From positions 16,051 to 80,050 of the forward strand of contig CAYVVG010000003.1 of NCBI GenBank assembly GCA_964455285.1: DNA of 64,000 nucleotides, in the 5' to 3' direction. Positions 14,169 through 63,805 of the stretch are shown piece after piece (position 1 is the stretch's first letter; each line of letters begins with the position of its first letter). The notes under the pieces were generated by a model, which had not been told where the DNA came from, did not search any database, and worked only from the letters and a program-made list of their open reading frames with translations. The DNA is from an uncultured Prolixibacteraceae bacterium. GTDB lineage: Bacteria; Bacteroidota; Bacteroidia; Bacteroidales; FEN-979. A program made the position numbers and the translations under genes.

Positions 14169-14185
14169 GATTTTCAACCCTATCA

Positions 14186-14193
14186 CAAAGGTA
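14186..14193 (-). promoter_or_regulatory. Candidate -7 box (minus strand TACCTTTG) for the three-gene T9SS cargo operon
   Basis: The plus strand reads CAAAGGTA, which is the reverse complement of TAnnTTTG. It lies 18 nt upstream of the ATG at 14168. Confidence 0.35.
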
Positions 14194-27734: not shown

Positions 27735-27856
27735 AACGATCCTTGTGGGTTGTGGAGTTGATTTCACAATTAAGACATAAAAGTACTTAAAAGTTGTTTA
27801 CGGGGAAAATAATATCCCGGCAGCGTAACACATAGGATGCATATACATATCAAATG

Positions 27857-37791: not shown

Positions 37792-37815
37792 GTACGACCC
37801 TGTTGCCGTCCATTG

Positions 37816-37823
37816 CAAAGATA
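37816..37823 (-). promoter_or_regulatory. Candidate -7 box (minus strand TATCTTTG) for the MgtE_N/CBS gene
   Basis: The plus strand reads CAAAGATA, 25 nt upstream of the start at 37791. Confidence 0.35.
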
Positions 37824-37834
37824 ACAAACTTCAT

Positions 37835-42947: not shown

Positions 42948-43877
42948 TCATTCTTCAACTTCGAAAAATGTATTGGGATGCACCACGCCTGCTTTCTCTC
43001 CCTTCGTCATGTACAGCCCCACCTGGTAATTCCCGGGTTCCAGCTTCCGGATCGGGATGATCGCGGAAAAGCCTGCGGAATCGAGGTTCAGCCCAAGCTT
43101 TGAAAAATGCGAGGTCACCCCCTTGCGCAGGACTTTCCCCACACGGTAAAAACGCTCCCTGTCGCCTTTTTTCAGCACCACGTAGGTGTTGAGATTCCTG
43201 GTATCGTTGCCATTGAGGAAACCCCACCCCTTTACCAGCAATGCTTTCCCCGACTGCTTTACCTCTTCGAAATAGTAAACGATCTCGCTGGTCGGGTCTC
43301 TCTTTTCAGGAGTGACCTCGCAGTCGGCCGGATCCGGTTCCGCTTCGGCTACAAGGTCGATCAGCTTGTACTTATCCTTCTTCTTTCTGAGTTCGAGGTG
43401 ATGGTTGGTGAAATACCTTCCTGTTTTATCCTCGATGGCGTACCCGATCGTATACACGCTGTCCTTCAGTAAAAATGTCGGCACCATCACGTCAAACCCC
43501 AGATGGGCAAAACGTTCGTCCATGTTGAAATACTCCGTCACCCCTTTCCGGTAGATCGTATCGTTATCGATCCGGAAGATCAGACGGTCGGCTGCCGAGG
43601 TCAGTACCAGGTAGGAAGTGCGCTCCTCCTGGGTATTATCCTTCTGGAACGCCCACCCCTTCAATCGCACATCCTCTTTCCACCGGAGGTTTGCCTTGCT
43701 GACCTCTTCAACCCAGAACTTCACGCTTTCCGATTCGGCAGGCAGTTCGATCCGGGTATGCCGGCCCTCGCAACCGGCCCGGACGAAAACGTAGAAGATA
43801 TAATCGGCAAACCAGAGGTAAAGTCCGAAGAGGACCAGAAACGCGACATAAGCGATGATTTTTATCGTTCTCTTCAT
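42948..43877 (-). CDS. N-terminally anchored protein with two tandem ~110-aa modules (paralogue B)
   Basis: 309 aa. TM anchor IKIIAYVAFLVLFGLYLWF. Modules contain LKGWAFQKD...YRKGVTEYF...LGFDVMVP...YTIGYAI and VKGWGFLNG...LRKGVTSHF...AGFSAIIP...YQVGLYM. Clearly homologous to 45483-46397. Confidence 0.6.
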   Translation of the reverse strand: MKRTIKIIAYVAFLVLFGLYLWFADYIFYVFVRAGCEGRHTRIELPAESESVKFWVEEVSKANLRWKEDVRLKGWAFQKDNTQEERTSYLVLTSAADRLIFRIDNDTIYRKGVTEYFNMDERFAHLGFDVMVPTFLLKDSVYTIGYAIEDKTGRYFTNHHLELRKKKDKYKLIDLVAEAEPDPADCEVTPEKRDPTSEIVYYFEEVKQSGKALLVKGWGFLNGNDTRNLNTYVVLKKGDRERFYRVGKVLRKGVTSHFSKLGLNLDSAGFSAIIPIRKLEPGNYQVGLYMTKGEKAGVVHPNTFFEVEE

Positions 43878-45482: not shown

Positions 45483-46397
45483 CTAAATTCCGATCTCGAT
45501 GAACTGATTGGAATAGGTCAACCCGATATGCTCTCCGCGAACGATGTATAACAGAACTTCGTATTTCCCCTTTGGCAGGAGTTTGCCATCGATGGTGGCA
45601 GAATACCCCGAATGGTCCAGATTGACCCCGAATTCATCTTTGAAATAAGTGGTCACACCTGTCCTTAGTTGGGGAACCGTAGTAAATATCACGTTTTTAT
45701 TGTCTTTCCGCAAAATAATATATGCCCTTGAAGAATCCGTGTTCAATCCTTTCAAAAAACCCCAGCCGCTGATCGTGAAAACATTATCCGAAACATTAAA
45801 AGTCTCGAAATAGTATTTGATCTTGTCTGTCTCGGGCCGCATGGAAATGGCTACTTTATGAGCTTCTATCTGATAATTCTCGAGCCTGACCGTACCATTG
45901 CCAAGCTTCATTTTTTTACCCGACATGGCATGATATTGTCCGGATTCATCTTTGATCAGGTATCCCACCTCATAGGCTGAATCCTTCAGCATTTCCAGCG
46001 GGATATATCCTTCATATCCATGATTATCAGCACTTCCTGTCAATTTACAGTATTCCGATACGCCGGGCCGGCTTAAATTGTCATTCACCGGATCAAAAAC
46101 AAGGGTGTTGGATCCCGATTTAAAAACCAGCAGAAGATCGCGGGTCTTTTCCTTCACATTTTGCTTTAAAACCCATCCTTTGATCAGAAGATAATCATTC
46201 CAGGTCTTATCAATGATACTGACCTCCTCGATATTCCCGATGATGTTATCCGTATCCGTGGGAAGCGTAATGTCAACGAGGCTGGCTGCCACTATTTTAT
46301 TGTCCGGTTTCAATATGAACCACAAAGCGATGCCGGTGATCACCACCAGGATTGCAACAGCCAGAATGATCTTCACTTTTTTACTCAGGGTTTTCAT
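45483..46397 (-). CDS. N-terminally anchored protein with two tandem ~110-aa modules (paralogue A)
   Basis: I chose the start at ATG 46397 (MKTLSKKVKIILAVAILVVITGIALWFIL). Modules contain IKGWVLKQN...SRPGVSEYC...YEVGYLI and ISGWGFLKG...LRTGVTTYF...SGYSATID...YEVLLYI. Confidence 0.6.
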   Translation of the reverse strand: MKTLSKKVKIILAVAILVVITGIALWFILKPDNKIVAASLVDITLPTDTDNIIGNIEEVSIIDKTWNDYLLIKGWVLKQNVKEKTRDLLLVFKSGSNTLVFDPVNDNLSRPGVSEYCKLTGSADNHGYEGYIPLEMLKDSAYEVGYLIKDESGQYHAMSGKKMKLGNGTVRLENYQIEAHKVAISMRPETDKIKYYFETFNVSDNVFTISGWGFLKGLNTDSSRAYIILRKDNKNVIFTTVPQLRTGVTTYFKDEFGVNLDHSGYSATIDGKLLPKGKYEVLLYIVRGEHIGLTYSNQFIEIGI

Positions 46398-46562
46398 CTT
46401 TTCATCTCCTACTTTAATGTTAACTATGTTGTGGTTTGTTACTTCATTCAGACCAACAGGGAGGTGATATTCAAGGCAGTGCCGGTTCGATGCGCCTCCC
46501 GGGTGCAAAATTACGAATTCACCCCTATAATCAAATGAATTCCTGCACGTACTGCAGGTCCG

Positions 46563-48877: not shown

Positions 48878-49858
48878 CTAACCCCTGCACCCCTTCCCTA
48901 CCAGTAGGGAAGGGGACGGGGGATGGGTAAAATGTTTATAGACACGCTGAATACCTTCCCGGATCCCGGTGCGCGGACTCCATGAGAAGGCCTTCGAGGC
49001 CCGGGTGATGTCGAGTACGTTCAGGGGGACGTCGAACTGCCTTCCCTCCCGGAAGGTCACCTTCACTTCGATGCCCGAAACATTGCGGATGATGGCGATG
49101 ATGTCGTTCAGGCTGTGCCCCTCGCCGCTTCCGATGTTGAACACATGATCGGCGGTCTCAGTCTGAAGTGACCGGGTGAGGACTTCGTTCACGTCGTCGA
49201 TGTAAATGTAATCGCGCACCACGCTGCCGTCGCCCCACACTTCGATCTCCTCCCCCCGGATCGCTTTCCGCAGAAACACGGCGATCACGCCCTGCTGGCC
49301 GAATGGGTTCTGGTGCTCGCCATAGGGGTTGGAAAGCCGGAACACCCGGCAGTTCAGCCCGTAGTTGCGGCGGTACAGGCTGCAATAGCTCTCGATGGCG
49401 CTTTTGATGATGCCGTAAGAGTTGAGCGGGACCAGCGGGTGCGATTCAGGGATCGGGAGGATGGCGGGAATGCCGTACACCGTACCTCCGGAGGAGATGA
49501 AATTGAACGAGCGGATCCGGTTGCCGTTGCGGCACTCTTCGAGCAGCCTGACCGTCGAAACCAGGTTGGACTCGATGTCGAACACGGGATTCGACATCGA
49601 GACCGCGGGGATCGTCGAACTTACCAGGTGAAAAACATGATCGATGCCCACGAGGGCGGCGGCTACATCCTGCCGGTTCTGAAAATCCCCCTCCCGGATC
49701 TCGACCTGGTCCTTTATCTTTTCAAGGTTCCGCGTCGAAAAGTTCCGGATATCGAAGATCCTGACATCGTAACCGGCCTCAAGCAACGACCCGGCCAGGT
49801 GGGACCCGATGAACCCCCCCCCTCCCAGCAGCAGGCATTTCAGTTTCGTCTCACTCAT
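48878..49858 (-). CDS. NAD-dependent epimerase/dehydratase (UDP-sugar 4-epimerase-like)
   Basis: 326 aa. Rossmann motif CLLLGGGGFIGSHL, catalytic YGIIKSAIE (YxxxK). The start overlaps the stop of the giant ORF (ATGA). Confidence 0.8.
   Translation of the reverse strand: MSETKLKCLLLGGGGFIGSHLAGSLLEAGYDVRIFDIRNFSTRNLEKIKDQVEIREGDFQNRQDVAAALVGIDHVFHLVSSTIPAVSMSNPVFDIESNLVSTVRLLEECRNGNRIRSFNFISSGGTVYGIPAILPIPESHPLVPLNSYGIIKSAIESYCSLYRRNYGLNCRVFRLSNPYGEHQNPFGQQGVIAVFLRKAIRGEEIEVWGDGSVVRDYIYIDDVNEVLTRSLQTETADHVFNIGSGEGHSLNDIIAIIRNVSGIEVKVTFREGRQFDVPLNVLDITRASKAFSWSPRTGIREGIQRVYKHFTHPPSPSLLVGKGCRG
48890..48915. repeat. REP-like hairpin CCCCTTCCCTA-CCAG-TAGGGAAGGGG inside the last codons of the epimerase ORF
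   Basis: Perfect 11-bp stem with the same CCAG loop as the copy at 40291-40314. It encodes the tail ...PPSPSLLVGKGCRG. Confidence 0.85.
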
Positions 49859-52800
49859 TTTTTTCCGCTCTTGCGGTTAGCCGACGACCGACCGGCAAAG
49901 ATCTTCTTCAACTGCGCGGGATCATACAGCTCCTTATATTGGGCATCGCCTACGTCGGGCCAGATGCCTCTCAGCTCTTTCGTCACATAATCGACCTGCT
50001 TGCCGAAAGCCTCTTCGCTGATATCGAAATGCTCGTCGATGAACCGGTGGATCCGGAAGTAATCGGGGATCGTGTTTGCGGCGGTGTTCCTGCTTTTCCC
50101 GACCACCGAGCCGTCGTGCCGGCGGTGAAAGTTGAGGGGTTCGGGCAGGTAGGCCACATTTCCCGTACGGATGATGTTCAGATACACGTACCAGTCGCCC
50201 GCACACCGGTAGGAAGTCACCTCCTCGAGGCTGACCTCCAGCAGGGCCGAACGCCGCATGATGACCGCGCTGACGTTCGGAATGATGTTCTTGATCCCAA
50301 GCCCGTCGCTCACTTCGCGGTTTCCGGAATTCACAAATGGCTGTTTCCATTTCTCGCCGCCGGGCAGTCCGGCATAATAACCGGTCGTGTGATAGAAGTG
50401 TTCATGGAGTTTGCCATCCCCGTCGATCACATGCGAGGCGCACCAGGCCAGGTTCACCGTCGGGTCGTTCAGCAGCGGCAGCATCTTTTCCAGGAAGGTC
50501 TCGGCCGACAGGTCATCCGATTCGGCGATCCAGACCAGGTCGCTCTTTGCCTTGCGGATGCCCTGGTACCACTGTTTGAACACGGAGCCGCTGTTCACCT
50601 TGTTCCTGACGATGGTTACGTCATGGTTTTCCGAAAAACGGTCGATGATCCGGTGGCTGTCATCTTCGGAGGCATCATCGAGCAGGATGATCTCGAAATC
50701 CTTGAATGTTTGATTTACAATGCTTTCCAGCCGCTTCTCCAGGTATTTCCCGTAATTGTAATTGGGTACGATGACCGAGACCGCCGGCCTGGCTCCGGCG
50801 ATGGTCCGGCAGCACGTAAGCACACGGGGGAGGTTGATGGCCACCGTATGCCTGGCAAGTACCTTGTGTTTGGCCTGTTGCCCGAGGGTGTGGCACAACG
50901 CCCTGTTTTCGTGAAGTTCGACGATCCGGTTGGCGGCCGTCAGAGTATCCTCGTACGGTACGACGAACCCGGCATCCTGTTCCACGAATTCGGGCATGCC
51001 CCCCGACCGGTCAAAGCAAATGACCGGAAGCCCCAGCTGCGCCGCTTCGAGGCACACCAGGGGGAACGGATCTTCGCGCGAGGAGAGCAGGAACACGTTG
51101 CTGGCGGCGAAATAGTCCTTGAAATCGAGCCGGGTGCCCAGGAAAGTCAGTTCGTTTTCCAGGCCGTACTCCCTGACTTTTGAGAATACCGTATCCCAGG
51201 AACCGTACACCGGGTAAACATTGGTGTCGTCGGTGGGACCGATCCAGTAAAAATGGCAGCTTCCGGGACGGATCTCCTTCACGTGGCGGGCGATCTCCAC
51301 GAAAAGATCGGCGCCTTTCCTCCAGAAAAGTCCGGCCGAGCAAGCCATAACGATGAATTTTTCCTTCTCCAGTCCCAGTTGTTCGCGGAGGCGAAGCTTT
51401 TCTGTCGCCGAAGGGGTTGCGATCTCCTTCCCTTCAATGAAATCGTGGATCACCCGTATCTTATCCTCTTTGATCTTCAGGTCGTTGACCAGGTTGTCGG
51501 CCACTGCCCTGCTCCCCGCGATGTAGAACGCAGTGTGGGCCGTTACATCCCCGACGAAATCGCGGGCGTAATAACCGATGCTCATCTTGAGTTCGTGGAT
51601 GTGGGAGATGACCGGCGCACCCAGGTGCCGGATGGCATGATAGCTTTTCCCGGCCGCGATGGAGCTTCCGAATACCAGGTCGGGTTTCCCTTCGCAGAAC
51701 TTCAGGATCTCTTCAACCTGGTCATCTATCTTCGGATGAAGGTGCTGCAATTCATTGAATACCAGCGTTTCGTCGATTTCATGAAAGCGGCCGAGCAGGC
51801 GTCCGCCGTAGTTGGTCATGATGCGGAGATCGACGGAGGTGTGGTTTTGGAACCACTTCAGCATGGAGATCAGCAGCATCTGGGCGCCCCCGAGGTGAGC
51901 GTCGTGCGAGATGAAAAGCACTTTGAACGGGGATGCCGGTTTCCCGGGTCCGAGATTCGCCCGGGGATGAAGGTCCGGTTGTATGATCGACCACGCCTTT
52001 TCGCGCGAGAAGTTCTCCTTCACGAATTCGAAAGCCTGTTCCGACCTCGACTTCAGCTGATCCTCAGCGGAATAGACGTTTACCACCGCTTCGACGAAGG
52101 CTTCGGCGGTGTCGGCCACCGTGATGGCCGGTCCGGCGCCGTTGAGCCCTTCGGCACCGATGGAGGTGGTGATCACCGGCAGGCCGTGGTACATCGCTTC
52201 GACCAGCTTGCCTTTCAGGCCGGCCCCGAAACGCAGCGGCGCGATCACCAGGCGGCACCGGCGGTAATACTCCATGAGTTCGTCATCATCCACGTACCCT
52301 GTGACATGGATATGTCCGCCGGCCCGGGCCCGGATCTCCTGAGGGGGATGGGAGCCGATGATGAACAGGTCGAGGCCGGGGATCTGCCGGTCGATGAGCG
52401 GGCAGATATCATCGAGCAGCCAGGCGACGGCATCGCGGTTGGGTTCGTGCATGAAACCGCCCACGAACATGATCCCTTTCCGCTCCTCCGGCCTGTACCG
52501 GGGTTTGTGGAAAGTTTCATAGATCAGCAGGGCGATGGTCCGCGCGGGTCCCCGCAGGCGGAATTCCTTCTGCACGATCTCCGTTTCGGCCTGCGACGGG
52601 TAATAGACCGCATCGACATTCTCGATGAGATACTTCTCCATCTCCTTCGAACGCTCGGAGATCTTCAGCAACTCCTCATCCTTTTCGACCAGGTACTTCC
52701 GGTACTCGCGCAGGAAATGCAGGTCATGCCCGTAGAACAGCACCCGTGCCCGGGTAAGTTCGCGGACGACGCCGAGGTATTTGATCGCGACGACGGGCCG

Positions 52801-55800
52801 GCTGATGAATGCCAGCCCGAAATGCATCCCGTTCGTTTTCAGCCAGGTGCGCCAGTTCTTCTCACAACAATCGCCATAGAGGATCTCCACCCCCCGTTGT
52901 TGAAAATAGTCCACGTAACAGCCGATGGGATAGAAATTATCCCCGATGAATTTAAGGACGATGCCGTGATCGGTAAAAAGGTCCATGTACGCTTTCATGC
53001 TCCGCGACCCCGCGTCCTTGTCGAACGTCGGCACGTAATGGTCGATCATCAGCATGTAGGTTTTCCGCTGTCCCCGCTCCCGAGCTACGAAAAGGTTGCC
53101 CGGGGAGGAGGTCATGTGGTGGTTTTCCAGGGTCTCCTGCCATTTCCGGTAAAAGACCTCTCTCGCTTCCGGGAAAATGAAATTCTCGGAACGTCCTGCC
53201 AGGACATGGGCCCGGGGCTGGAAGATGACTTTATACCCCCACCAACGGGTCGCCATGGAAAGGTCGTACGCCAGGAAGGGCCATGGATCGGCCGTGTACA
53301 AGGCATGACCGACCCAATCCCGGAAGATCTGTTTTTTCACCATGACAAACCGGTCGCCTGAATCCACTTCGTGGAGGTAAAGGTGCTCGGGATCGTAGGG
53401 CCCCTGGTTGGCGCCGATCCGGGCGGTGCAACCGTTCTCCCAGATGACCACCCCTGCCGATTCGAGCATCTGATCCCGTTTCCACACCTGGGGCACCACC
53501 ATCGCCCAATCTTCCCGCCGGGCCAGCGTCTCTTCGCAGGCCTCCAGGGCGCCCGGCAGCACCTGCACGCCGGGATGCATGAGGATCACATTCCGGATCG
53601 GGGAGGCCGGGTCCAGCAGGGTCGCGATCTCCTTCGGGGTCATCGTACCGATGCCGGGAACCGGCGGCCCGGCAAAACCGGGATTGCCGGTAACCACGAA
53701 TTTCATGGGCCGCCGGGCATTCGCGGCGACCGACCGGGCCGCTTCTTCCAGCGGAAGCTCACCCGGCTGGAAAAAGACCACCAGGATCTCCGGGTCGGGG
53801 GGATCGGGAAAAGCGAGCCCTCCTTCCGAAGCGGGCCCTGGAGCAGGCCGGGGCGCCTGCACCGGGGAAACGGGAATCGCCCGGGCTGCCTGTGCCCGTT
53901 GTCGCTGGGCCTCCCGTTCCGGGGTTTTCAGCCTCTGCATGAATGCAGCCCAACTGCCCCCGTGGAGAGCCCGGATAAAACGCACGGGATGGGCAACGGC
54001 CCCGGCGAGGGTCTTCACGACCAGCCAGCGCCGGGAGCCGAAAGGAAAAAGCAGATAGAACAGTTTGAAGATCCCGTCGATGGCAAGGCGCAGCGGCCGG
54101 GTCAGGCGCCAGGACAGAGATTGTTCGAGTGCCGTTTGCCGGGATGCCAGCCGCCGGATCTCCGCCTCCTGCCGTTCACTCTTCCGGGCCAGTTCATCCT
54201 TTCGCTGTTCAAGCAGGTCGATGGTTTCGAGCGCGGCGGTGTGCTCCGACTGAAGTCCGGCCGCTTGATCTTCCGATTTTTTCAGCGCGGCGGCGGCCTC
54301 TTCGAGCCGTTGCTTCAGAAGGTCCGTTTCCGACGTCATCGCGGCAACCATCCGTTCCTTCTCTTCTGTGACCGCGGCCAGCAACTGTTCCATTTCCGCC
54401 AGCCCGGCTTCTTTTGCGGCGAGATCCGATGCCAGGCCCGAGACTTTCTCCTCCAGGGTGCGGATAACGTCGTTCTGCCGGTCAATCCGGCCCGTCAATT
54501 CGGCGGTCGTGTCAATCTGCCGCTGCAATTCAAGGTCCCTGAAACGAAGGTCGGCCGACAGCCGGCTCAAGGTGCTGCCGGACTCCTGCAGCCGGTCTGC
54601 CAGTTCCCCGATCCTGGCATCGCGTTCCTGCAATTGCTGCTCGAGCTGCCGGATGACCTCGCCGAACCGGATCAGCTGATTATCCTTGATCTGTATGGAA
54701 TTCTCCTTGTCGGCCAGCTGGCGCCCTTTCGCCAGCAGGAGTTCATCCTTCTCCTGGAGCAGCCCCTCCTTGCCCTGGAGCAGTTGCTCCTTTTCCTGCA
54801 ACTGCGCCTCCTTGGCCAGGATCTGGTCCTCCTTTTTCCCAACGCGTTTTTCCTGTTCGATGATCAGGTCCCGTTTTTGCTGCAGATGGGCCTCCTTATC
54901 GCTGATATGCTGTTCGAGCAGGTTGAGCTGGTTCACCAGTGCCAGGATCTGCCGGTCCTTTTCGGAGACATTCCGGGTCAGTTCTTCGATCTTCGCTGCA
55001 GCCCGTTCATTTTCAGCGCCAAGCCTGCCCGACAGCGCGTCGATCTCTTCACGGGTCGAGGAGAGCTGCGACTGCAGCTGTTCCGCTGCTGCGTAAAAGG
55101 CCCTCGATTCTTCATCCCTTTCTTCGATCTCTTTCATGGTTTGGATGATGTCGGTCTCTTCCGCAAGTGCTTCGCGGGTGGCCTGCAGGAATCGCAGACC
55201 GTATCTTTTATCCGGTTCCAGGTGGGCTCCTTCCGCCCATTCATTCCAGGCATTCAGGAAGACCAGGTTCTCGTCGCCCCGGTTTTCCTTCCGTGTGAGC
55301 CCGATCACGGCTTTCAGGTAAAGCTTGTACAGTTCGGGCGAGGAGTTGAGGTAGACCGTGCTGGCATGGTCTCTCCGTGGCGTGTTGTCCCACGAAGGAA
55401 AGGCGCCGCGGAAAAAGGTGAATCCGGGTTTTGGGATGGTGACCATGTGCTGCACCACGCTCGGAAAGTTGATGAGCCAGTTGTCGGACAGCGAGGCGGG
55501 ATCCATCTGATGAAGGGCGGCAAAGACAGATTTGTCGATCTTGCACCGGTCGGTGTAGTCAAGCGGGAACTGTACCGTGGCGTCGTATCCCAGCGGGCGG
55601 GGGTCGATATCCTTGATAAAGTTGTTGACAGCGCAGATATACAGATCACTCCCGGTCTCCTTCAACACGGCCTGTCGCCATATCTCCGCGGTCTTTGCCG
55701 GATCGGGGAGCAGTTCGGGACGGTACACGAGCAGCAGGAGCCGTTCGCCCACCCGGATATACCGGGGATCTTTCAATGCCGGGAGGATCGATCCGATGAA

Positions 55801-56226
55801 GCGTTTATCGTCCCTGGCCGAATGGGATTGACGGATGAGGATATCATCCTGGTGCCCGTCCCACCGGCGGGACCAATTCTCGTTGGCCCAGCACAGGCAG
55901 AAGGGAAAATCGGGCTTGCCCGATGCCAGCATCTCATCGAGCGGACGGTGAAGCAGGCGTTTGCCGTTGAAATAATAGTAGTAGTAACAAAAACCGTATA
56001 TTCCATGCTCCCGGGCCAGGCGTGCCTGGGCCTCCCTGGCCTCGGGAAGCCGGAGGTCATAAAACCCGAGGTCGGCCGGGAGATGCGGCTGGTAATGTCC
56101 CGGGAACAAGGGTTTCGCGGCGGTCACATTCGTCCATTCCGTAAACCCGGCCCCCCACCAGGCATCGTTCTCCGGGATCGGGTGGAATTGCGGAAGGTAA
56201 AAAGCGATCAGGCGGACGTCGTTCAT
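49855..56226 (-). CDS. 2,123-aa multidomain protein: WbsX-like domain, long coiled coil, degenerate GT-A-like domain, two GT-B (GT4-like) domains and a C-terminal GT2 domain
   Basis: One uninterrupted ORF. I counted the residues, and they total 2123. Domain motifs are listed in the findings. All long plus-strand ORFs across this span are low-complexity shadow ORFs. Confidence 0.85.
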   Translation of the reverse strand: MNDVRLIAFYLPQFHPIPENDAWWGAGFTEWTNVTAAKPLFPGHYQPHLPADLGFYDLRLPEAREAQARLAREHGIYGFCYYYYYFNGKRLLHRPLDEMLASGKPDFPFCLCWANENWSRRWDGHQDDILIRQSHSARDDKRFIGSILPALKDPRYIRVGERLLLLVYRPELLPDPAKTAEIWRQAVLKETGSDLYICAVNNFIKDIDPRPLGYDATVQFPLDYTDRCKIDKSVFAALHQMDPASLSDNWLINFPSVVQHMVTIPKPGFTFFRGAFPSWDNTPRRDHASTVYLNSSPELYKLYLKAVIGLTRKENRGDENLVFLNAWNEWAEGAHLEPDKRYGLRFLQATREALAEETDIIQTMKEIEERDEESRAFYAAAEQLQSQLSSTREEIDALSGRLGAENERAAAKIEELTRNVSEKDRQILALVNQLNLLEQHISDKEAHLQQKRDLIIEQEKRVGKKEDQILAKEAQLQEKEQLLQGKEGLLQEKDELLLAKGRQLADKENSIQIKDNQLIRFGEVIRQLEQQLQERDARIGELADRLQESGSTLSRLSADLRFRDLELQRQIDTTAELTGRIDRQNDVIRTLEEKVSGLASDLAAKEAGLAEMEQLLAAVTEEKERMVAAMTSETDLLKQRLEEAAAALKKSEDQAAGLQSEHTAALETIDLLEQRKDELARKSERQEAEIRRLASRQTALEQSLSWRLTRPLRLAIDGIFKLFYLLFPFGSRRWLVVKTLAGAVAHPVRFIRALHGGSWAAFMQRLKTPEREAQRQRAQAARAIPVSPVQAPRPAPGPASEGGLAFPDPPDPEILVVFFQPGELPLEEAARSVAANARRPMKFVVTGNPGFAGPPVPGIGTMTPKEIATLLDPASPIRNVILMHPGVQVLPGALEACEETLARREDWAMVVPQVWKRDQMLESAGVVIWENGCTARIGANQGPYDPEHLYLHEVDSGDRFVMVKKQIFRDWVGHALYTADPWPFLAYDLSMATRWWGYKVIFQPRAHVLAGRSENFIFPEAREVFYRKWQETLENHHMTSSPGNLFVARERGQRKTYMLMIDHYVPTFDKDAGSRSMKAYMDLFTDHGIVLKFIGDNFYPIGCYVDYFQQRGVEILYGDCCEKNWRTWLKTNGMHFGLAFISRPVVAIKYLGVVRELTRARVLFYGHDLHFLREYRKYLVEKDEELLKISERSKEMEKYLIENVDAVYYPSQAETEIVQKEFRLRGPARTIALLIYETFHKPRYRPEERKGIMFVGGFMHEPNRDAVAWLLDDICPLIDRQIPGLDLFIIGSHPPQEIRARAGGHIHVTGYVDDDELMEYYRRCRLVIAPLRFGAGLKGKLVEAMYHGLPVITTSIGAEGLNGAGPAITVADTAEAFVEAVVNVYSAEDQLKSRSEQAFEFVKENFSREKAWSIIQPDLHPRANLGPGKPASPFKVLFISHDAHLGGAQMLLISMLKWFQNHTSVDLRIMTNYGGRLLGRFHEIDETLVFNELQHLHPKIDDQVEEILKFCEGKPDLVFGSSIAAGKSYHAIRHLGAPVISHIHELKMSIGYYARDFVGDVTAHTAFYIAGSRAVADNLVNDLKIKEDKIRVIHDFIEGKEIATPSATEKLRLREQLGLEKEKFIVMACSAGLFWRKGADLFVEIARHVKEIRPGSCHFYWIGPTDDTNVYPVYGSWDTVFSKVREYGLENELTFLGTRLDFKDYFAASNVFLLSSREDPFPLVCLEAAQLGLPVICFDRSGGMPEFVEQDAGFVVPYEDTLTAANRIVELHENRALCHTLGQQAKHKVLARHTVAINLPRVLTCCRTIAGARPAVSVIVPNYNYGKYLEKRLESIVNQTFKDFEIILLDDASEDDSHRIIDRFSENHDVTIVRNKVNSGSVFKQWYQGIRKAKSDLVWIAESDDLSAETFLEKMLPLLNDPTVNLAWCASHVIDGDGKLHEHFYHTTGYYAGLPGGEKWKQPFVNSGNREVSDGLGIKNIIPNVSAVIMRRSALLEVSLEEVTSYRCAGDWYVYLNIIRTGNVAYLPEPLNFHRRHDGSVVGKSRNTAANTIPDYFRIHRFIDEHFDISEEAFGKQVDYVTKELRGIWPDVGDAQYKELYDPAQLKKIFAGRSSANRKSGKK

Positions 56227-56306
56227 CGGGCAATCCAGTTCTCGATTTGGCTGGTAAAGTTAACTTTTTTATTTTTCTTCGGATGGGAGAGGGTTGCTGC
56301 ATCATG

Positions 56307-57353
56307 CTAACCGATGTCGGAATACCTGATGTACCATTCATAATACCCGCCCGTGTGTTCGTCGACGTGATAGGGATCAGGAAAGGCTGCCTGCAGGTCG
56401 GGCCTGCTCAGGTAAAGACGGCGCATTTCGGGGGTGATGGGTTCCCCGTTCCGGAACCTATCGTAATGCCAAACCGACTTCGCTGCTTCCGCCTGCCCGT
56501 TCCGCTTCAGTTCTTGTTCATACCATTCCCACATTTCCCTGAGCAGGTGGTTATCGCCGCCGTACTGCGACAGGCTGGTGTGACCGGCTCCCGAGTCGAA
56601 CCCGGTGAAGTGGTAAAACCGCAGGGGCCGGCCGCCGGCAAGCAGCATTCCTTCATCCGACATCGTCACGGGCCGCATGTTGATGTTCCAGGTGGCCACG
56701 TTGTAGCCCGGGTCACGCAGGATGTACGATTCGTCGAAGAAAGCGGGCACATGATCGCACCATTTCTGGTCGGTGAAGAGCCCGGAAGCTTTGTCGTCGT
56801 AACAGAAATGGTAGAGGCGGTGAGCCCACCACCGCGCGAAATCCCTGCCCTGCCCTTCGTTTCTCACCGCGAAAAATCCCAGGTTGAAGATCCCGTGTTG
56901 CATGGCGCATATCTCATGGTCGATGATCGCCTGAAGGTCGGTGTTCGGTGTGGTCAGATGCGGGGTGAGGATGACCGGGTGATGGTCAAGCAGGCGTTCC
57001 AGTTCGTCGAGGGGGTTGAAGATCACCATGTCCGGGTCGAAATAGAGCACCTTCCGGGGTTGAAAGGTATCCAGGACATATTGGAGCCCGGGTCCTTTCA
57101 TGGCTGTGCACAGTTCCACCACCGAATGCCTGAATATCCATTGCTGCCGGTTTTCCAGGGGGATCTGCTCAGGACAGATCACGTTGTCGAAAGGTTCCTC
57201 TTCGATCAGGACACCCTCCGGAAGCCGGTCCGACAACAGCACATCGAATGTCCATCCAGGATGGAATTTTTTCAGGCTCTTGGCAAGGATCCTCGCTTTG
57301 GGAAGATACGAAGAGGTGATGGAAGTCAGGCATCTGACGGCAGGTGTATCCAT
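56307..57353 (-). CDS. GT-A fold (GT8-like) putative glycosyltransferase
   Basis: 348 aa. LTSITSSYLPKARILAKSLKKFHPG, YFDPDMVIF (DxD-like) and DPGYNVATWNI form a motif set I associate with an uncharacterised nucleotide-diphospho-sugar transferase family. Confidence 0.5.
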   Translation of the reverse strand: MDTPAVRCLTSITSSYLPKARILAKSLKKFHPGWTFDVLLSDRLPEGVLIEEEPFDNVICPEQIPLENRQQWIFRHSVVELCTAMKGPGLQYVLDTFQPRKVLYFDPDMVIFNPLDELERLLDHHPVILTPHLTTPNTDLQAIIDHEICAMQHGIFNLGFFAVRNEGQGRDFARWWAHRLYHFCYDDKASGLFTDQKWCDHVPAFFDESYILRDPGYNVATWNINMRPVTMSDEGMLLAGGRPLRFYHFTGFDSGAGHTSLSQYGGDNHLLREMWEWYEQELKRNGQAEAAKSVWHYDRFRNGEPITPEMRRLYLSRPDLQAAFPDPYHVDEHTGGYYEWYIRYSDIG

Positions 57354-57358
57354 GGCGG

Positions 57359-59398
57359 TTAGATCAAATCATGGTAGATGTCCGGTTCGCTGTGCTCCGG
57401 TTCCGAGGTGAAAGTGGTGATCCCGGCATGCGCGACCAGCAGTCTCCTCAGCTGTTCCGGTTGTTGAAGTAGATCCATCAGGGCCTCTTCCGAGGGAACG
57501 ACGGAACCGCACTTTTTTGTCGTAACCAGGTGTGCGATATTCCCGCTTTGCGGATGGGTGAGGATGAAACAGCCGGCCGCCATCACTTCGTGGGCGGTGA
57601 GCGAGTAGGTTTCGGGTACGATGGACCAGAGCAGGACCACATCGATGGCATGACGGATCAACTGGTGCAATGCCGATCGTTCGGGTCCTTCGCCGGAACC
57701 GACATAGACAAATCGTTCCGGTGCACGGGACGGATATTTTGATAACTGGAAACAATCGTAGGGGGCAGCGGCCGGTGAATCGGCGAATCTCCTCCACGTT
57801 TCCCACCCTTTCAGCCGCACCGGCGTTCCCAGGAATGCGATCCGGATCCGGTAGGCGGGATCCGCGTAAAGACGGTGAAGGTCCCGCTGCCGGTGAACGG
57901 GTTTAACCATCCTCAGCAGCGGTGCAACCCGGATCTTTTCTGCAATCTCAGGGAATTCCGCCGACAGCATGGAACGGCTTACCTCCGACGGCGTCAGGAA
58001 GGTGAACGGGAACTTGCCGGTAAGCGAACGGAGGACCGGGAGATTGCTCCGGCGCAGGTCGCCGTAACGGCAGATCGTGCAGGCATTGCTGCCGGTACCG
58101 GGCTTGTGGCAGTACTCATGGTCGTTTCGCAACAGGGTCACCTGGGGGCAGATCAGGAAATAATCGTGCAGCCAGAAAATGAGGGGGACATCGCCCAGCA
58201 AACCCAGGAAGCCTTCCAGGACGGGGAGGGGCCAGTGAAGGGTATGGTGGATCAGCACCCCGGCCGTTGCGAGGGAGTTGCGGCGGGAAAGGGATTCTCC
58301 AAATGCCAGGAAACCGGTCCGCGACATTTTTCCGATCGTCCGGTCTCCCATGCAGACCCCTGCCTCGAAAGAAGCAGGGTTCGCCGGTGCCGGCTCTTGC
58401 GTGGCCGGGTGGAACTGCAGGTATACCAGCGATCTGTTTTCAAACCACACCCGTTCTTTGTTCATATAATTCTGCACCCCGCCGGTGATCTCCAGGTAAT
58501 TGTCATGGCTGAATGCCAGGATCACCTTCTTCCCGAGAGATTGCAGCATCTCCATCAGTTCACTGGCTGACAGGGATTTTAGAGGCATCCCGTCGCCGGT
58601 CAACCCGGCATCCGGTTCATTTTCATCCAGGGTGTTCCAGTCCAGCCCGGGATACCGGGGAAGGAGATCGTTGAACGGGGAGCCGGGATCGCGCAGCCGT
58701 TCATCGCCGGGTCGGAGCCCGAAATACCGCTTTACCTTGTATGGGAAATCGACGCTGAGCCGGTCGTGCACTCCTTCGGAGGAACTCCCCCCGGTACGGA
58801 ACCGGGCGATGATCTTGTCCGCATACTCAAATTCCTCTTTCGACCAGCGCCTCAGGTTGAAGTCATAATCGGCGGTGACTTTGTACCGGGTGTCGAAACA
58901 GCCGGAGTCGATGAACACCCGGCGGGGATAGAGGATTGACTGGTGGCAGATATTTTTCGCCAGGATCTTCCTGAGGTCGAAAGGCCCGTCATAAATGGCG
59001 CCATCCCGGGCCCAGGGCAGGTCCCCCTCCACCTGCACATTCCCGTAAACAACCCGGGTGCCGGAGAGGAATCCCTCGCGGTAGAGTTCTGTCAGGATAT
59101 CGGGGGAAGAAAACTCATCATCCCCCCCCAGAAAATAGAGCCAGTCGCCTGTGCTCAGGTGGACGCCCCGGTTCATCGCATCGTAAATGCCGGCATCGGG
59201 GCACGAGTAAACCCGGATGTGGTCGTATTTTCTCCGGTATCGTTCCAGGATCTCCACGGTGCCGTCATCCGAAAGGTTGTCGCAAAAGATATGCTCGATG
59301 GGCCGGTAGGATTGCCGGGCAACGCTGAGGAGCGATTTCTCGACCGTCGCTGCGCAGTTGAACGTCGGGGTGATAACGGTTACGAGAGGATGGTCCAT
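57359..59398 (-). CDS. Two-domain glycosyltransferase: N-terminal GT2 plus a C-terminal GT-B-like domain
   Basis: 679 aa. VTVITPTFNCAATVEKSLLSVARQSYRPIEHIFCDNLSDDGT and WLYFLGGDDEF are GT2 motifs. The C-terminal ~400 aa has a Rossmann-like alternation of secondary-structure elements and a Cys cluster, CHKPGTGSNACTIC. Confidence 0.7.
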   Translation of the reverse strand: MDHPLVTVITPTFNCAATVEKSLLSVARQSYRPIEHIFCDNLSDDGTVEILERYRRKYDHIRVYSCPDAGIYDAMNRGVHLSTGDWLYFLGGDDEFSSPDILTELYREGFLSGTRVVYGNVQVEGDLPWARDGAIYDGPFDLRKILAKNICHQSILYPRRVFIDSGCFDTRYKVTADYDFNLRRWSKEEFEYADKIIARFRTGGSSSEGVHDRLSVDFPYKVKRYFGLRPGDERLRDPGSPFNDLLPRYPGLDWNTLDENEPDAGLTGDGMPLKSLSASELMEMLQSLGKKVILAFSHDNYLEITGGVQNYMNKERVWFENRSLVYLQFHPATQEPAPANPASFEAGVCMGDRTIGKMSRTGFLAFGESLSRRNSLATAGVLIHHTLHWPLPVLEGFLGLLGDVPLIFWLHDYFLICPQVTLLRNDHEYCHKPGTGSNACTICRYGDLRRSNLPVLRSLTGKFPFTFLTPSEVSRSMLSAEFPEIAEKIRVAPLLRMVKPVHRQRDLHRLYADPAYRIRIAFLGTPVRLKGWETWRRFADSPAAAPYDCFQLSKYPSRAPERFVYVGSGEGPERSALHQLIRHAIDVVLLWSIVPETYSLTAHEVMAAGCFILTHPQSGNIAHLVTTKKCGSVVPSEEALMDLLQQPEQLRRLLVAHAGITTFTSEPEHSEPDIYHDLI

Positions 59399-59573: not shown

Positions 59574-59645
59574 TTGATTGCTATCCGCATTGCGTAAGCT
59601 GCATCACCGCGGGTAATGGTATTGATATTCTGCTCTTCATTCCTC

Positions 59646-61646
59646 ATGAACAAACCTCGGATGGCCATCTTCATCGATCCAGTCGGATTAGGCATCTGGC
59701 GCAGGCCTGTCTCAGGACTTTTCTGGGGATTCATGCTTATCACGCTCATCTCAAAACTGGTACCCTTCTCCCCGCGTATGCCGTCTCTCGGACTTGACCC
59801 ATCCTGGCAGCTCGGACTGAATCAGGCTGTCTCTCAAGGGCTCTGTTTCGGCACCGAACTGGTATTTACCTTTGGTCCGTATGCATCAATCTTTACAAGG
59901 TTGTTTCACCCGGGCACAGATTCTCTCATGCTTTTTAGCAGCATTTATCTGGCTTTTTCATTCTGGTTGTGCTTGTTGATGATCACCCGGGATGTTAGGT
60001 GGTATTGGACTCTTGGCTTTTGTCTCACAATTATCATTCTGGTACATTTTGACACCCTGTTAATCTCTTTCCCCCTGCTTGTCGGATTGCTGTCTTATAA
60101 AAGCTCGTTTGTCAAGGAGAAAAGCAGGCTTTCTCTGTCATTCCGGTGGGCATGTCTGGCAGTCGTATTCTCAGCAATTGGCCTATTGACGCTCGTGAAG
60201 GGTTCGATGCTCCTGATCTGCATGTCAATAATGGCATTGTGCCTGGTCTTTTTTTTCCTGCAAAAGCACGTCGTACCCGCATTTGTTTCGCTATTTGCAC
60301 CGCTGGGGTCAGTGGTCTTACTTTGGATTGCCTCAGGTCAGTGGCTGCCCGATCTTCCATCCTATTTCAAAGGCATTCTGCTGGTCAGCTCCGGCTATTC
60401 GGAAGCCATGGCAACCTCCGGTAATACCTATGAAATTGCCTTGTTTATACTTGCTGCTCTCCTGATTTTGCTCCTGGCTTTCCTGCAAAACGGAATTTCG
60501 TGGCATTCGAGGTTGTTTTTGTTTCTCCTTTTTTCCTCCTTTCTCTTTCTCTCCTTTAAAGCCGGTTTTGTCCGTCATGACATGCATGCCATCCTCTCTG
60601 CCAATTCAGTTTTAATTGCATCCCTTTGCCTGCCCATGATTCTGCACAATCGGTTCACATTCCCGGTGATCTTGTGTTCCATCTTCTTTTGGTATCTTAT
60701 TCATGTCAATTATTATCCTTTAAATATCAATATTTTGATGAACAACACATGGTCCCCCTATATCAAAGCATACAAAGGGATCCATAAACGGCTGACCAAC
60801 AAAGATTGGTTGAGGTCACGTTACGCCACCCGACTGGACAGTCTTGCAAAGAAATCCTCATTCCCCCGGCTGGCCGGCACTTCCGATATATATTCCAGCA
60901 GCCAGTCATCCCTGATCGCTTCGGGAAATAACTGGTCGCCCCGTCCGGTCTTCCAGAGTTATGCAGCCTTCAACCCCCGGCTTGCTGCTATGAACCGCGA
61001 CCACCTTCTCGGAAACAAGGCCCCCGACCATGTTTTCTTCGGCATGGAACCGATCGACGGCAGGCTCCCGTCGTTGGAAGACGGGGTCAGCTGGCCGGTA
61101 CTCCTGAACCTTTACCGGCCCCTGATGATGAACGACAGCCTGTTAGTCCTGGACAGGGTCAGGGACATGGCGGCGGAACCCCCGCTGGATCCCGTTTTTG
61201 ACAGGAGATTCGACACCGGAGAGCCCGTGGCATTGCCGGATACGGGCAGCGTCCTGTTCGCCCAGGTCATCGTCGAACTCGGGATCTTCGGGCGGCTGGC
61301 CGATTTTTTCTATAAACCCGGTTCACTGAGGATAACGCTGGTACTGAACGACGGCAACATCAAGGAGTTTCGCTTCGTGGCAGGCATGGCGGCCTCCGGA
61401 TTTGTCCTTTCCCCGTTGATCGAAAATCCGCACGAATTTTATCTCTTGTACGTCGATCCTGGCAGTCTTGTCAACAAGACCGTCAGATCCATGACGGTCG
61501 TACCGGAAGATCCGGACGATCTTTCCTGGGAAAAAAACTATCGGGTCATTATCAGCCGGCTCCCGGTACGGAAGGCAGATCCCCGGCAGGTCAGGAATTT
61601 TTCGGAGGAAAAGCCCGATTTAACTACTTTTGAGGTGAAAAAGTGA
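59646..61646 (+). CDS. Polytopic membrane protein with a C-terminal soluble domain (candidate GT-C-type glycosyltransferase or polymerase)
   Basis: I chose the start at ATG 59646 (MNKPRMAIF...). There are at least 10 hydrophobic segments over ~390 aa, including GLDPSWQLGLNQAVSQG in an early loop. About 270 aa of hydrophilic sequence follow. The function is inferred from context only. Confidence 0.45.
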   Translation: MNKPRMAIFIDPVGLGIWRRPVSGLFWGFMLITLISKLVPFSPRMPSLGLDPSWQLGLNQAVSQGLCFGTELVFTFGPYASIFTRLFHPGTDSLMLFSSIYLAFSFWLCLLMITRDVRWYWTLGFCLTIIILVHFDTLLISFPLLVGLLSYKSSFVKEKSRLSLSFRWACLAVVFSAIGLLTLVKGSMLLICMSIMALCLVFFFLQKHVVPAFVSLFAPLGSVVLLWIASGQWLPDLPSYFKGILLVSSGYSEAMATSGNTYEIALFILAALLILLLAFLQNGISWHSRLFLFLLFSSFLFLSFKAGFVRHDMHAILSANSVLIASLCLPMILHNRFTFPVILCSIFFWYLIHVNYYPLNINILMNNTWSPYIKAYKGIHKRLTNKDWLRSRYATRLDSLAKKSSFPRLAGTSDIYSSSQSSLIASGNNWSPRPVFQSYAAFNPRLAAMNRDHLLGNKAPDHVFFGMEPIDGRLPSLEDGVSWPVLLNLYRPLMMNDSLLVLDRVRDMAAEPPLDPVFDRRFDTGEPVALPDTGSVLFAQVIVELGIFGRLADFFYKPGSLRITLVLNDGNIKEFRFVAGMAASGFVLSPLIENPHEFYLLYVDPGSLVNKTVRSMTVVPEDPDDLSWEKNYRVIISRLPVRKADPRQVRNFSEEKPDLTTFEVKK

Positions 61647-61664
61647 AACAAACACCTGGAACAA

Positions 61665-62747
61665 ATGGATAAAACGATCGTGATCAGCGGCGGATGCGGT
61701 TTTGTGGGTTCTCACCTCGCGGTCGGTTTCAGGGAAAAGCATCCCGCCTGCACCGTGATCGCCCTCGACAACCTGAAACGCCGGGGTTCCGAACTGAATC
61801 TCCTCCGGCTCCGCCAGGCCGGCGTCAGTTTCCGGCACGGGGATATCCGCATTCGCGAGGACATCGAAGCCCTCGGCCCGTTCGACCTTTTCATCGACGC
61901 CTCCGCCGAACCGTCTGTCGTGGCGGGAATCACCGACTCCCTCGATTATGTGATCTCCACCAACCTGGGCGGAACCCTGCACTGCCTGCAGGCAGCAAAG
62001 AAATATCAAGCCGGCTTTATTTTCCTGTCGACCAGCCGGGTTTACCCCATGACCCGGCTTGGCAGCATATCCTATGAAGAGACCCCGACACGGCTGGCAC
62101 CGGCCGGGACGACACACCTTCCCGGCCTCTCCGAAAAAGGCATTGCAGAGGATTTCCCCCTGGAGGGAGCACGATCCTTCTACGGGGCGACCAAGCTGGC
62201 CTCGGAACTGATGATCGGCGAATTCCATGCCATGACCGGCATGAAAACCGTCATCAACCGCTGCGGGGTGATCGCCGGTCCCCGCCAGATGGGGAAAGTC
62301 GACCAGGGGTTTGTCGTTCACTGGATCGCCCGTCATTTCTGGGAAAAACCGCTCTCCTACTTCGGATACGGGGGCGGGGGAAAACAGGTGCGCGACATGC
62401 TGCATGTCGGCGACCTTTTCCGGCTGATCGACGAACAGGCCGGCAACATGGAGAAATTCAACGGGGGAACCTTCAATGTCGGGGGTGGCCTGCCGGGTTC
62501 GGTATCGCTTTGCGAGCTGACGGAGATGTGCCGGGCGATCACCGGTCGCCGGCTGGAGATCGGCCGGGTGCCCGAAAACCGGGTAGCCGACATCCCTTGG
62601 TTTGTCACCGACCACTCCCTGATCACCCGGCTGTCGGGCTGGGAGCCCCGGATCCGGCCGACGGAGATCGTTTCGGAGATCCATGACTGGATCCGGTCCG
62701 ATCCTCAACCGCTCTTCGACCTGCTCATTAACGAACAACGATCATGA
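61665..62747 (+). CDS. NAD-dependent epimerase/dehydratase (CDP-paratose-2-epimerase-like SDR)
   Basis: 360 aa. [36 protein letters not shown] and YGATKLASE (YxxxK). Confidence 0.75.
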
Positions 62748-63805
62748 ACATTGCTTTGGTTACAGGCTCGGCCGGACTGGTCGGCAGCGAATCCGTCTCA
62801 TTCTTCTCTGCTTTTTTCGACACGGTGCTAGGGATCGACAACGACCTCCGGGCCTATTTCTTCGGCACCGACGCCTCCACCGAATGGAACCGTCGGCACC
62901 TGGAGGAACAATTCACGAATTACAAACACTTCTCCGCCGATATCCGCAATTATCCGGCCATGGAAGAGATCTTCAGGGAGTACGGCACCGACATCCGGCT
63001 GGTGATCCATGCCGCCGCCCAGCCCAGCCACGACTGGGCCGCCAAAGAGCCGCTCACGGATTTCACGGTCAACGCCAACGGTACGCTCAACCTGCTGGAA
63101 CTGACCCGGAAATACTGCCCCGCAGCAGTGTTTATCTACACCTCCACCAACAAGGTGTACGGCGATACGCCCAACTTTCTGCCCCTGGTCGAGCTGGAAA
63201 CCCGCTGGGAGATCGACGCTTCCCATCCTTTTTTCGCCCACGGCATCGATGAGTCGATGAGCATCGACCACAGCAAACATTCCCTTTTCGGTGCTTCCAA
63301 AGTGGCTGCCGATGTACTGTCGCAGGAGTACGGCCGCTATTTCGGCATGAACGTGGGGGTGTTCCGCGGCGGCTGCCTCACCGGGCCGAACCACTCGGGC
63401 ACCCAGCTCCACGGCTTTCTCTCCTACCTGATGAAATGCGCCATCACCGGGGAACATTACACCATTTACGGCTATAAGGGGAAGCAGGTGCGCGACAACA
63501 TCCACAGCCGCGACCTGGTGAACATGTTCTGGCATTTCTACCGGGATCCCAGGCAAGGAGAAGCCTATAATGCAGGCGGAGGCAGGCATTCGCACTGCTC
63601 GATGCTGGAGGCCATCGCCCTGTGCGAGAAGATCACTGGAAAAAAGATGAATTACTCCTACGCCGGGAACAACCGCATCGGCGACCACATCTGGTATGTG
63701 AGCGACCTGTCGAAATTCAGATCCCACTATCCCGGGTGGGGCTGGGAATTCGGCCTGGAAGAGATCCTGGTGCAGATCTACAACGGCATGAGCAAACGGG
63801 TTTAA
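62744..63805 (+). CDS. NAD-dependent epimerase/dehydratase (second SDR, ATGA-coupled)
   Basis: 353 aa. [20 protein letters not shown] and FGASKVAAD (YxxxK-like with F/K). 4-nt overlap with the upstream SDR gene. Confidence 0.75.

Follow-up and report, generated by a model that had tools for sequence, protein, structure and literature searches.

A WbsX-headed coiled-coil protein from an uncultured Prolixibacteraceae bacterium as a candidate ruler of glycan chain length

Layout of the giant protein and its coiled-coil stalk

The stretch analysed here comprises 64,000 nucleotides of an uncultured Prolixibacteraceae bacterium (GenBank assembly GCA_964455285.1, contig CAYVVG010000003.1, positions 16,051 to 80,050) and is referred to below as the window. 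It contains a glycan locus with a single giant gene for a multidomain glycan-assembly protein. A previous reading, made from the sequence alone, had proposed that a coiled coil of about 350 residues within this protein acts as a molecular ruler for chain length, with a WbsX-like domain on one side and glycosyltransferase (GT) domains on the other, that is, the logic of the O-antigen enzyme WbbB with a distal domain of a different family. The interval in question, 54118-55164, corresponds exactly to residues 355-703 of the minus-strand open reading frame (ORF) 49855-56226. The features of the protein and of its main neighbours are collected in Table 1.

Table 1. Features of the giant protein and neighbouring genes (positions in the window)
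Feature	Position	Strand	Evidence or relatives
Giant ORF, multidomain glycan-assembly protein, 2,123 residues	49855..56226	minus	Identical protein P0001 in NCBI-derived data
Distal head, WbsX / GH99-like (beta/alpha)8 domain, residues 1-352	55171..56226	minus	Pfam PF14307, AlphaFold2, Foldseek
Coiled-coil stalk, residues 356-705, ~50 heptads	54112..55161	minus	Heptad periodicity, COILS-type score, Viterbi trace
Tandem 21/42-bp DNA repeat coding for xKExxLx heptads, residues ~464-499	54732..54836	minus	
Stalk-base module, residues 703-756 (SWRLTRPLR, amphipathic helix, PFGSRRW turn, second helix)	53959..54120	minus	
Pro-rich linker, predicted disordered, residues 784-813	53788..53877	minus	AlphaFold2 pLDDT <50
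Domain X, GT-A fold, residues 814-1036	53119..53787	minus	No Pfam match
GT4 domain a, residues ~1050-1415, Glyco_trans_1_4	51982..53079	minus	Pfam
GT4 domain b, residues ~1430-1805, Glyco_transf_4 + Glycos_transf_1	50812..51939	minus	Pfam
GT2 domain, residues ~1810-2123	49858..50799	minus	Pfam
NAD-dependent sugar epimerase/dehydratase	48878..49858	minus	72% identical gene follows the L002 orthologue
Second, stand-alone WbsX, 359 residues	47725..48804	minus	64-70% identical gene downstream of orthologues in L003/L004/L005
Stand-alone GT4, 394 residues	46563..47747	minus	Syntenic, 58-68% identical in L003/L004/L005
679-residue protein with N-terminal GT2	57359..59398	minus	Homologue in L002/L003 (43-46% identical), upstream of wzm-wzt and the giant gene

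The order of the domains agreed with the arrangement proposed earlier: the WbsX head is distal, on one side of the stalk, and the polymerising GT modules are proximal, on the other side and on the same polypeptide, three of them (GT4, GT4 and GT2) identified by Pfam and the first, domain X, by its GT-A fold. The match of the head to Glyco_tran_WbsX (PF14307; residues 6-349) covered nearly the whole model, with 446.8 bits against a cut-off of 25.1 (E-value 9e-134); proteins of this type are named GH99-like domain-containing proteins by NCBI. Further Pfam matches were found for GT4 (residues ~1250-1385 and 1506-1787) and GT2 (residues 1817-1947), and none between residues 350 and ~1190. Two long plus-strand ORFs (53371-56310 and 51253-53361) were rejected as genes on the basis of this Pfam match and of full-length orthologues for the opposite ORF. 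Opposite the coiled coil, the shadow ORFs 54368-54679 and 54686-55096 were rich in Ser, Cys and Arg, as far as Ser is concerned in line with what had been described.

The best structural matches of domain X were hyaluronan synthase, FKRP, GalNAc-transferases and GlfT2, and its fold matches GT2 and GT27 enzymes. The column of the DxD motif reads DD in two relatives (P0002 and P0131) and HPG in the window protein. Because of this HPG, domain X is predicted to be non-catalytic here, probably a remnant of a GT-A enzyme and a candidate pseudo-glycosyltransferase.

The segment between head and base is strikingly regular. No Pro occurs from P338 to P711, although 22 would be expected from the Pro content of 6.0% elsewhere in the protein (the probability of finding none is ~1e-10); Gly is depleted (13-14 residues), and the prevailing residues are E, L, A, Q, R and K. 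A COILS-type scorer, which is a proxy since its matrix is a re-implementation, gave a probability of at least 0.5 at residues 366-705, except for a dip at 557-565, and nowhere else in the 2,123 residues, the remaining ~1,780 of which served as an internal negative control. The Fourier power of hydrophobicity at a period of 3.5 over residues 366-705 was 191, compared with a mean of 10.9, a standard deviation of 10.7 and a maximum of 66 in 1,000 composition-preserving shuffles (z = 16.8), whereas the period of a plain alpha-helix, 3.6, reached a z of 2.5 only. Thus, the heptad phase is coherent across the whole segment, which also led us to discard low complexity or composition as the source of the signal. 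When residues 356-705 were traced by a Viterbi heptad model, they contained two register breaks only, both +4 stutters (near residues 404 and 627), with unbroken heptads for 223 residues between them. Residues 356-705 are one long canonical coiled coil, which would span ~52 nm if fully extended (0.1485 nm per residue). The Pro- and Gly-poor heptad segment described by the sequence-only reading is therefore strong and continuous, and its coiled-coil propensity is unfragmented except for the dip.

The internal echoes noted previously were also recovered, as seven consecutive xKExxLx heptads encoded by a 21/42-bp tandem repeat of DNA. This repeat reads as a trace of stalk growth by heptad duplication. 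Two paralogues with methyltransferase heads showed comparable repeats: P0124 carries five copies of a perfect QEKENVI heptad (residues ~270-312), and P0129 has near-perfect tandem heptads of the EKEVxINEKNN type (residues ~330-400), which would imply recent stalk expansion through 21-bp slippage. With repeats both in the window protein and in P0124, the mode of stalk growth, heptad duplication, appears to be directly visible.

The stalk ends in LEQSLSWRLTRPLRLAIDGIFKLFYLLF, as had been stated. This segment had been viewed as an amphipathic stretch of the SWRxTxPLR type, and residues 702-725 are indeed amphipathic (hydrophobic moment 0.55-0.59 at a mean hydrophobicity of ~0-0.24); they do not form a stand-alone helix, however, and belong, as its N-terminal portion, to a conserved module of ~55 residues, here called the stalk-base module or SW module. 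Its consensus is S-W-[KR]-x-T-x-P-L-R-W ... F-Y-x-F-x-P-[YF]-G-S-[KR]-R-W ... K, with S, W, T, P, L, R, F, Y, P, G, S, W and K invariant across eight aligned proteins. An AlphaFold2 model of moderate confidence placed a helix at residues 704-726, the PFGS turn and more helices up to ~783, followed by the disordered Pro-rich linker (783-812) and the folded domain at 814-1036. Searches of Pfam, NCBIfam and PDB sequences gave no match to the module, and an exhaustive HMMER scan of 1.84 billion representative proteins yielded 19 matches at E-values of at most 1e-3; thus, the full module is rare. In every carrier found it follows a coiled coil, and the shorter motif SW[KR]xTxPLR is found again, immediately behind coiled coils, in many further glycan enzymes with several domains; a literature search for the motif gave nothing useful. 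A transmembrane helix at the SW segment was rejected, its Kyte-Doolittle maximum over 19 residues being 1.34 (1.58 protein-wide), and no hydrophobic stretch of transmembrane grade was found anywhere in the giant protein. By analogy with known systems, the module may associate with the membrane, and its sequence (SWKITxPLRW...PYGSKRW) could serve as a marker for ruler proteins.

Stalk lengths and head exchange among relatives

The WbsX head belongs to a distinct clade of distal heads. Seven proteins (P0002, P0003, P0007, P0008, P0010, P0011 and P0125) scored ~600 bits against it, whereas other WbsX domains reached 415 bits at most. Every member of this clade has an N-terminal head, a Pro-free helical stalk and the SW module, so that the coiled coil has been kept in all of them; the body is more variable and may be X-GT4-GT4-GT2, GT4-GT2 or X-GT4, or be absent as in P0125. 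The latter protein (639 residues) is made up of WbsX, the coiled coil and the base module alone, and its gene follows wzm and a wzt with the Wzt_C domain.

We then compared stalk lengths as the distance from the NEWAEG motif of the head to the SW motif of the base. This distance is 261 residues in P0002 and in P0003, 233 in P0007, 275 in P0008, 205 in P0010, 198 in P0011 and 254 in P0125, all of which equal 2 mod 7 and correspond to 28, 29, 33, 36, 37 or 39 heptads. That six distinct lengths fall in one residue class would have a chance probability of ~(1/7)^5 = 6e-5, a figure based on eight proteins only, some of them close relatives. The window protein has the longest stalk in the series, 377 residues or 6 mod 7 (that is, 2 mod 7 plus 4), corresponding to 53 heptads and one extra stutter; with this additional +4 stutter (near residue 627), the register at both ends of its stalk is the same as in the orthologues. 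The seven orthologues thus differ from each other by whole heptads, and from the window protein by heptads plus one stutter, which is the pattern of insertions and deletions that the earlier reading had suggested looking for. The two ends of the stalk are held in a fixed phase, and the length between them can vary in steps of a heptad. In extended form, the stalks of the orthologues would measure 25-37 nm.

Such single-heptad steps fit an in-register parallel coiled coil. They also bear on a different geometry, an antiparallel hairpin or an otherwise unrelated structural role, in which the stalk would fold back at residues 548-565 and bring the head beside the base and the GT body, its length being irrelevant. 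A fold of this kind is possible through a potential soft spot at these residues: the dip in coiled-coil probability lies near a mid-stalk SGST stretch, and the xKExxLx heptads have one strong core position only. On the other hand, the Viterbi trace holds its register across residues 548-565, the stalk has no Pro or Gly-rich loop, and orthologues such as P0003 are continuous without a central break. Moreover, the two paired arms of a hairpin would need to change together, whereas the observed lengths differ by single heptads. We regard a hairpin as highly improbable.

The head, in turn, can be exchanged. Over a span of ~1,480 residues that starts in the last heptads, covers base, X, both GT4 domains and GT2 and reaches the C-terminus, P0122 has 66% identity to P0002 and 48% to the window protein; in front of this part it has a Methyltransf_11-like head on a stalk of ~80 residues. 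The presence of a methyltransferase head on this conserved body shows that head and stalk act as an exchangeable cassette. Other carriers of the base module have heads of Methyltransf_11 (P0127 and P0129, besides P0122), Methyltransf_24 (P0124 and P0128) or GT2 (P0123 and P0126). Together with such head swaps, the natural series of stalks from 28 to 53 heptads offers material for mapping stalk length to glycan length.

Fold and possible chemistry of the WbsX head

The AlphaFold2 model of residues 1-360 (predicted local distance difference test, pLDDT, 85; predicted template modelling score, pTM, 0.88) is a (beta/alpha)8 barrel. Its best Foldseek matches in the PDB were GH99 endo-alpha-mannosidases and the GH99-like OpGH99A, followed by GH71 (E-values of 2e-11 to 1e-8, TM-scores of 0.55-0.61). 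A single-sequence search of the PDB with the head gave nothing. A profile of 22 WbsX domains matched OpGH99A at 5.7e-6 and active GH99 enzymes weakly, at 0.011-0.15, and aligned INAWNEWAEGxxLEPD of WbsX with ITSFNEWHEGxQIEPA of GH99. This stretch holds the two GH99 glutamates that were mutated in the E333Q and E336Q structures; the corresponding E329 and E332 of the NEWAEG motif are invariant across the 22 WbsX domains, and OpGH99A (5NGW) reads NNWNIG at this position. Thus, according to the model, a family that Pfam calls a glycosyltransferase would have a glycosidase-type fold and active-site motif. The head resembles BtGH99, BxGH99 and human MANEA in fold and in the N-E-W-x-E-G...E-P motif; unlike these GH99 enzymes, to which it is only 11-16% identical, it is cytoplasmic and fused to biosynthetic transferases, and carries the Pfam label of a glycosyltransferase. 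The GH99-type NEWxEG..EP motif was also observed in the stand-alone WbsX encoded in the same locus. WbsX domains are very widespread, with more than 5,000 matches at E-values of at most 1e-100 among the candidates scored. The only functional mention found comes from a study of phage resistance in B. gladioli, in which mutations in a giant wbsX of an O-antigen cluster with wzt were predicted to lead to an aberrant or truncated O-antigen (PMC13391952).

Given this fold, it should be considered whether a head at the tip of a ruler would cut chains instead of capping them, acting as a retaining glycosidase or transglycosylase that cleaves or remodels the chains reaching it. GH99 endo-alpha-mannosidases are the best matches of the head model (E-value 2e-11, TM-score ~0.6), the active-site glutamates are aligned with an invariant motif that OpGH99A lacks, and the fold is not that of a Leloir glycosyltransferase. 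If true, this would be a "measure-and-cut" mode of length control, distinct from the known "measure-and-cap". However, endo-cleavage leaves a non-reducing end that could be extended again, unless the exposed residue were unusable by the polymerase, and hydrolysis in the cytoplasm would be wasteful. Polymerase proteins, in which a hydrolase would make little sense, also contain WbsX domains in tandem, and the Wzt_C of characterized systems reads an added cap. Thus, a cutting head appears quite unlikely. On a more modest reading, WbsX could be a new TIM-barrel class of glycan-terminating enzyme.

Transporter context, length control and known terminator-ruler systems

Additional evidence was obtained from the surroundings of the orthologous genes. 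In three loci (L002, L003 and L004), wzm and a wzt with the Wzt_C domain directly precede the orthologous gene. In the characterized systems, the carbohydrate-binding module (CBM) of Wzt recognizes the cap at the chain terminus, and export is thereby restricted to terminated chains (PMC11231755). An extended coiled coil has been called "a characteristic marker" of terminator-ruler systems, in which the terminator is distal, and methyltransferases such as WbdD and KpO7 ORF6 are the classical chain terminators (PMC11231755). Of the 11 proteins of the window locus that were scored (the giant protein and ten neighbours), none but the giant protein has a coiled coil.

The reading that we favour, with some reserve, is that the giant protein is an assembly protein of the WbbB/KpO7-ORF6 format, in which the base anchors, the stalk spaces, and the WbsX head terminates long chains and licenses their export. 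The stalk would be a parallel homo-oligomeric coiled coil of ~50 heptads and ~50 nm that rises from the amphipathic base module on the cytoplasmic face of the membrane. The transferases by the base (X, both GT4 domains and GT2) would polymerize an undecaprenyl-linked glycan jointly with the stand-alone WbsX and GT4 encoded nearby. The WbsX head, held at the far end of the stalk, would for this reason act on a chain only after growth had carried it that far; it would modify the chain's non-reducing end, the addition of a capping sugar being most likely. Capping would stop extension and license export via an ATP-binding cassette (ABC) transporter with a cap-binding Wzt module.

The distribution of WbsX domains suggests a different explanation, in which the coiled coil is a scaffold or oligomerization stalk and WbsX is part of the polymerase and adds a repeat-unit sugar or a side branch, with chain length set otherwise, for example by the stoichiometry of transporter to polymerase as in Klebsiella O2a. 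Of the more than 4,000 multidomain WbsX proteins identified, most have a contiguous WbsX-GT4-GT2 block after another N-terminal domain, often with a short coiled coil. Among the 120 top homologues, ~100 had WbsX in a WbsX-GT4-GT2 or WbsX-GT4-WbsX block, and this usual placement suggests that the family takes part in polymerization. Two genes downstream of the giant gene there is another WbsX gene, and no transporter with a CBM was found in the window. O1/O2-type systems control length without a CBM (PMC11231755). On the other hand, the head clade is well separated from the WbsX of polymerase modules by the bit scores given above, and its slot can be taken by methyltransferases on a body that is 48-66% identical. 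Wzt_C is present in three orthologous loci, and a phase-keeping stalk of 25-52 nm exceeds what oligomerization needs.

The sister clade provides evidence on both sides. The closest stand-alone relatives of the head (P0141-P0161; 61-69% identical, ~435 residues), encoded for example at 10001-11305 in L086 and 10001-11308 in L087, have no coiled coil and function without a stalk in similar loci; thus, the stalk is not required for WbsX catalysis as such. Their Pro-containing tail ends in an amphipathic helix, NSxTF[KR]VG[KR]xIMWxP, which is like a degenerate SW motif. The gene set of L087 comprises wzm, wzt with Wzt_C, a WbsX, a GT4-GT2 protein and a second WbsX. In these stalk-less loci, however, a coiled coil reappears on other enzymes (a GT2 in L086; a GT2 and a methyltransferase in L087), and each locus still has a coiled-coil enzyme, in line with the published generalization. 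Considering all of this, we think it doubtful that the stalk is a scaffold only.

For the terminator-ruler reading, several observations weigh against it in addition to the usual block placement and the stalk-less sister clade. No homologue of Wzm or Wzt was found in the 64-kb window by tblastn; in L002 and L003 a wzm-wzt pair lies between the upstream GT2 gene and the giant gene, and this pair is absent from the corresponding place in the window and in L005. The predicted fold of WbsX, a GH99-like TIM barrel with the glutamate pair of a hydrolase, is neither GT-A nor GT-B, and no experimental work on WbsX activity was found in the literature searched. The proxy nature of the COILS-type scores, the small set of proteins behind the heptad statistic and the possible soft spot in the stalk count on the same side. 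Thus, the earlier ruler proposal is supported in part: as to the coiled coil and the architecture, and by the heptad-step lengths, the Wzt_C of orthologous loci and the methyltransferase head swap. It is weakened by the glycosidase-like fold of WbsX and its usual placement in polymerase blocks, by the absence of Wzm/Wzt from the window and by the stalk-less sister clade.

Some other genes of the window were also examined. Four genes of the locus had no Pfam match. One of them (56307-57353, minus strand) encodes a 348-residue protein directly upstream of the giant gene; two (45483-46508 and 42948-43877, both minus) are paralogous, with ~310-340 residues and 30% identity to a gene in L003; and the fourth (59616-61646, plus) encodes a polytopic membrane protein of 676 residues that could bear on glycan export given the absent wzm/wzt. 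At the edge of the glycan locus there is a short insertase gene of the YidC/60KD_IMP family (40400-41155, minus; 251 residues). An NAD-dependent epimerase/dehydratase (62744-63805, plus) is unusually conserved, with counterparts of 66-75% identity in many Bacteroidota and also in metagenome-assembled genomes of Nitrospinota, Planctomycetales and Deferribacterales. A 436-residue ORF (36517-37827, minus) contains MgtE_N and CBS domains and an N-terminal extension of ~200 residues; the search did not report the MgtE transmembrane domain, and the product could be a soluble sensor related to MgtE, unless the ORF is truncated or has been given the wrong start. Farther away, four large proteins (7353-9704, 9732-11852, 11880-14186 and 26433-27767) end in C-terminal sorting domains (Por_Secre_tail) of the type IX secretion system, and a GH92 alpha-mannosidase is located at 30746-33070. 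These sorting domains indicate an origin in the Bacteroidota/FCB group, as do the nearest relatives, which come from Bacteroidota.

Coiled-coil rulers are an established way of setting the length of O-antigens and related glycans in ABC-transporter-dependent pathways. [quoted passage not shown] Both the ruler principle, including the shift of modal chain length by insertions and deletions in the WbdD coiled coil (PMC5082667), and the coiled-coil marker (PMC11231755) have already been reported; therefore, the system described here is not of a new kind. What appears to be new, within the literature that was searched, is the GH99-like WbsX domain in the terminator slot, the base module and the heptad-quantized series of lengths.

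Finally, we compared the giant protein with the functional class formed by WbdD, WbbB, KpO4 ORF7 and KpO7 ORF6. As in this class, an extended coiled coil parts a catalytic head from the base module and the GT domains; the accompanying Wzm and CBM-bearing Wzt were seen in L002, L003, L004 and the sister locus L087 and not in the 64-kb window. Membership of the WbbB or WbdD family by homology was rejected, as no GT99 or WbdD-type head was found in Pfam and NCBIfam searches; judged by its domains, the window protein would be an analogue, not a homologue, of WbbB and WbdD. WbbB of Klebsiella pneumoniae O12 and Raoultella terrigena likewise combines an N-terminal distal head, a coiled coil and C-terminal GT modules on one polypeptide, and works with an ABC transporter with a CBM-bearing Wzt (PMC11231755); the orthologues of the window protein are encoded directly after wzm and a wzt with Wzt_C. 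The two proteins differ in the head (a GT99 beta-Kdo transferase in WbbB, a GH99-like TIM barrel here), in the body (GT102/GT103 versus GT-A-like, GT4, GT4 and GT2), in the stalk-base module of ~55 residues, and in that no transporter is encoded in the window. K. pneumoniae O7 ORF6 receives further GTs from separate proteins, just as the window locus supplies a stand-alone WbsX and GT4, and methyltransferase heads like that of ORF6 occur on the same base module in the relatives P0122, P0127 and P0129; its head family and chemistry are different, and its body has two GT2 modules. The window protein itself has no recognizable methyltransferase or kinase. WbdD of Escherichia coli O9a/O8 and K. 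pneumoniae O3/O5 shares the N-terminal catalytic head and the extended coiled coil, which in WbdD is followed by a membrane-interacting region and in the window protein by the amphipathic base module; unlike the window protein, WbdD acts as a kinase/methyltransferase and relies on a separate polymerase, WbdA, which it recruits, and its coiled coil of ~20 nm is exceeded ~2.5-fold by the window stalk (~52 nm). The closest parallel to WbdD is P0125, which has exactly the same format of head, stalk and base only.

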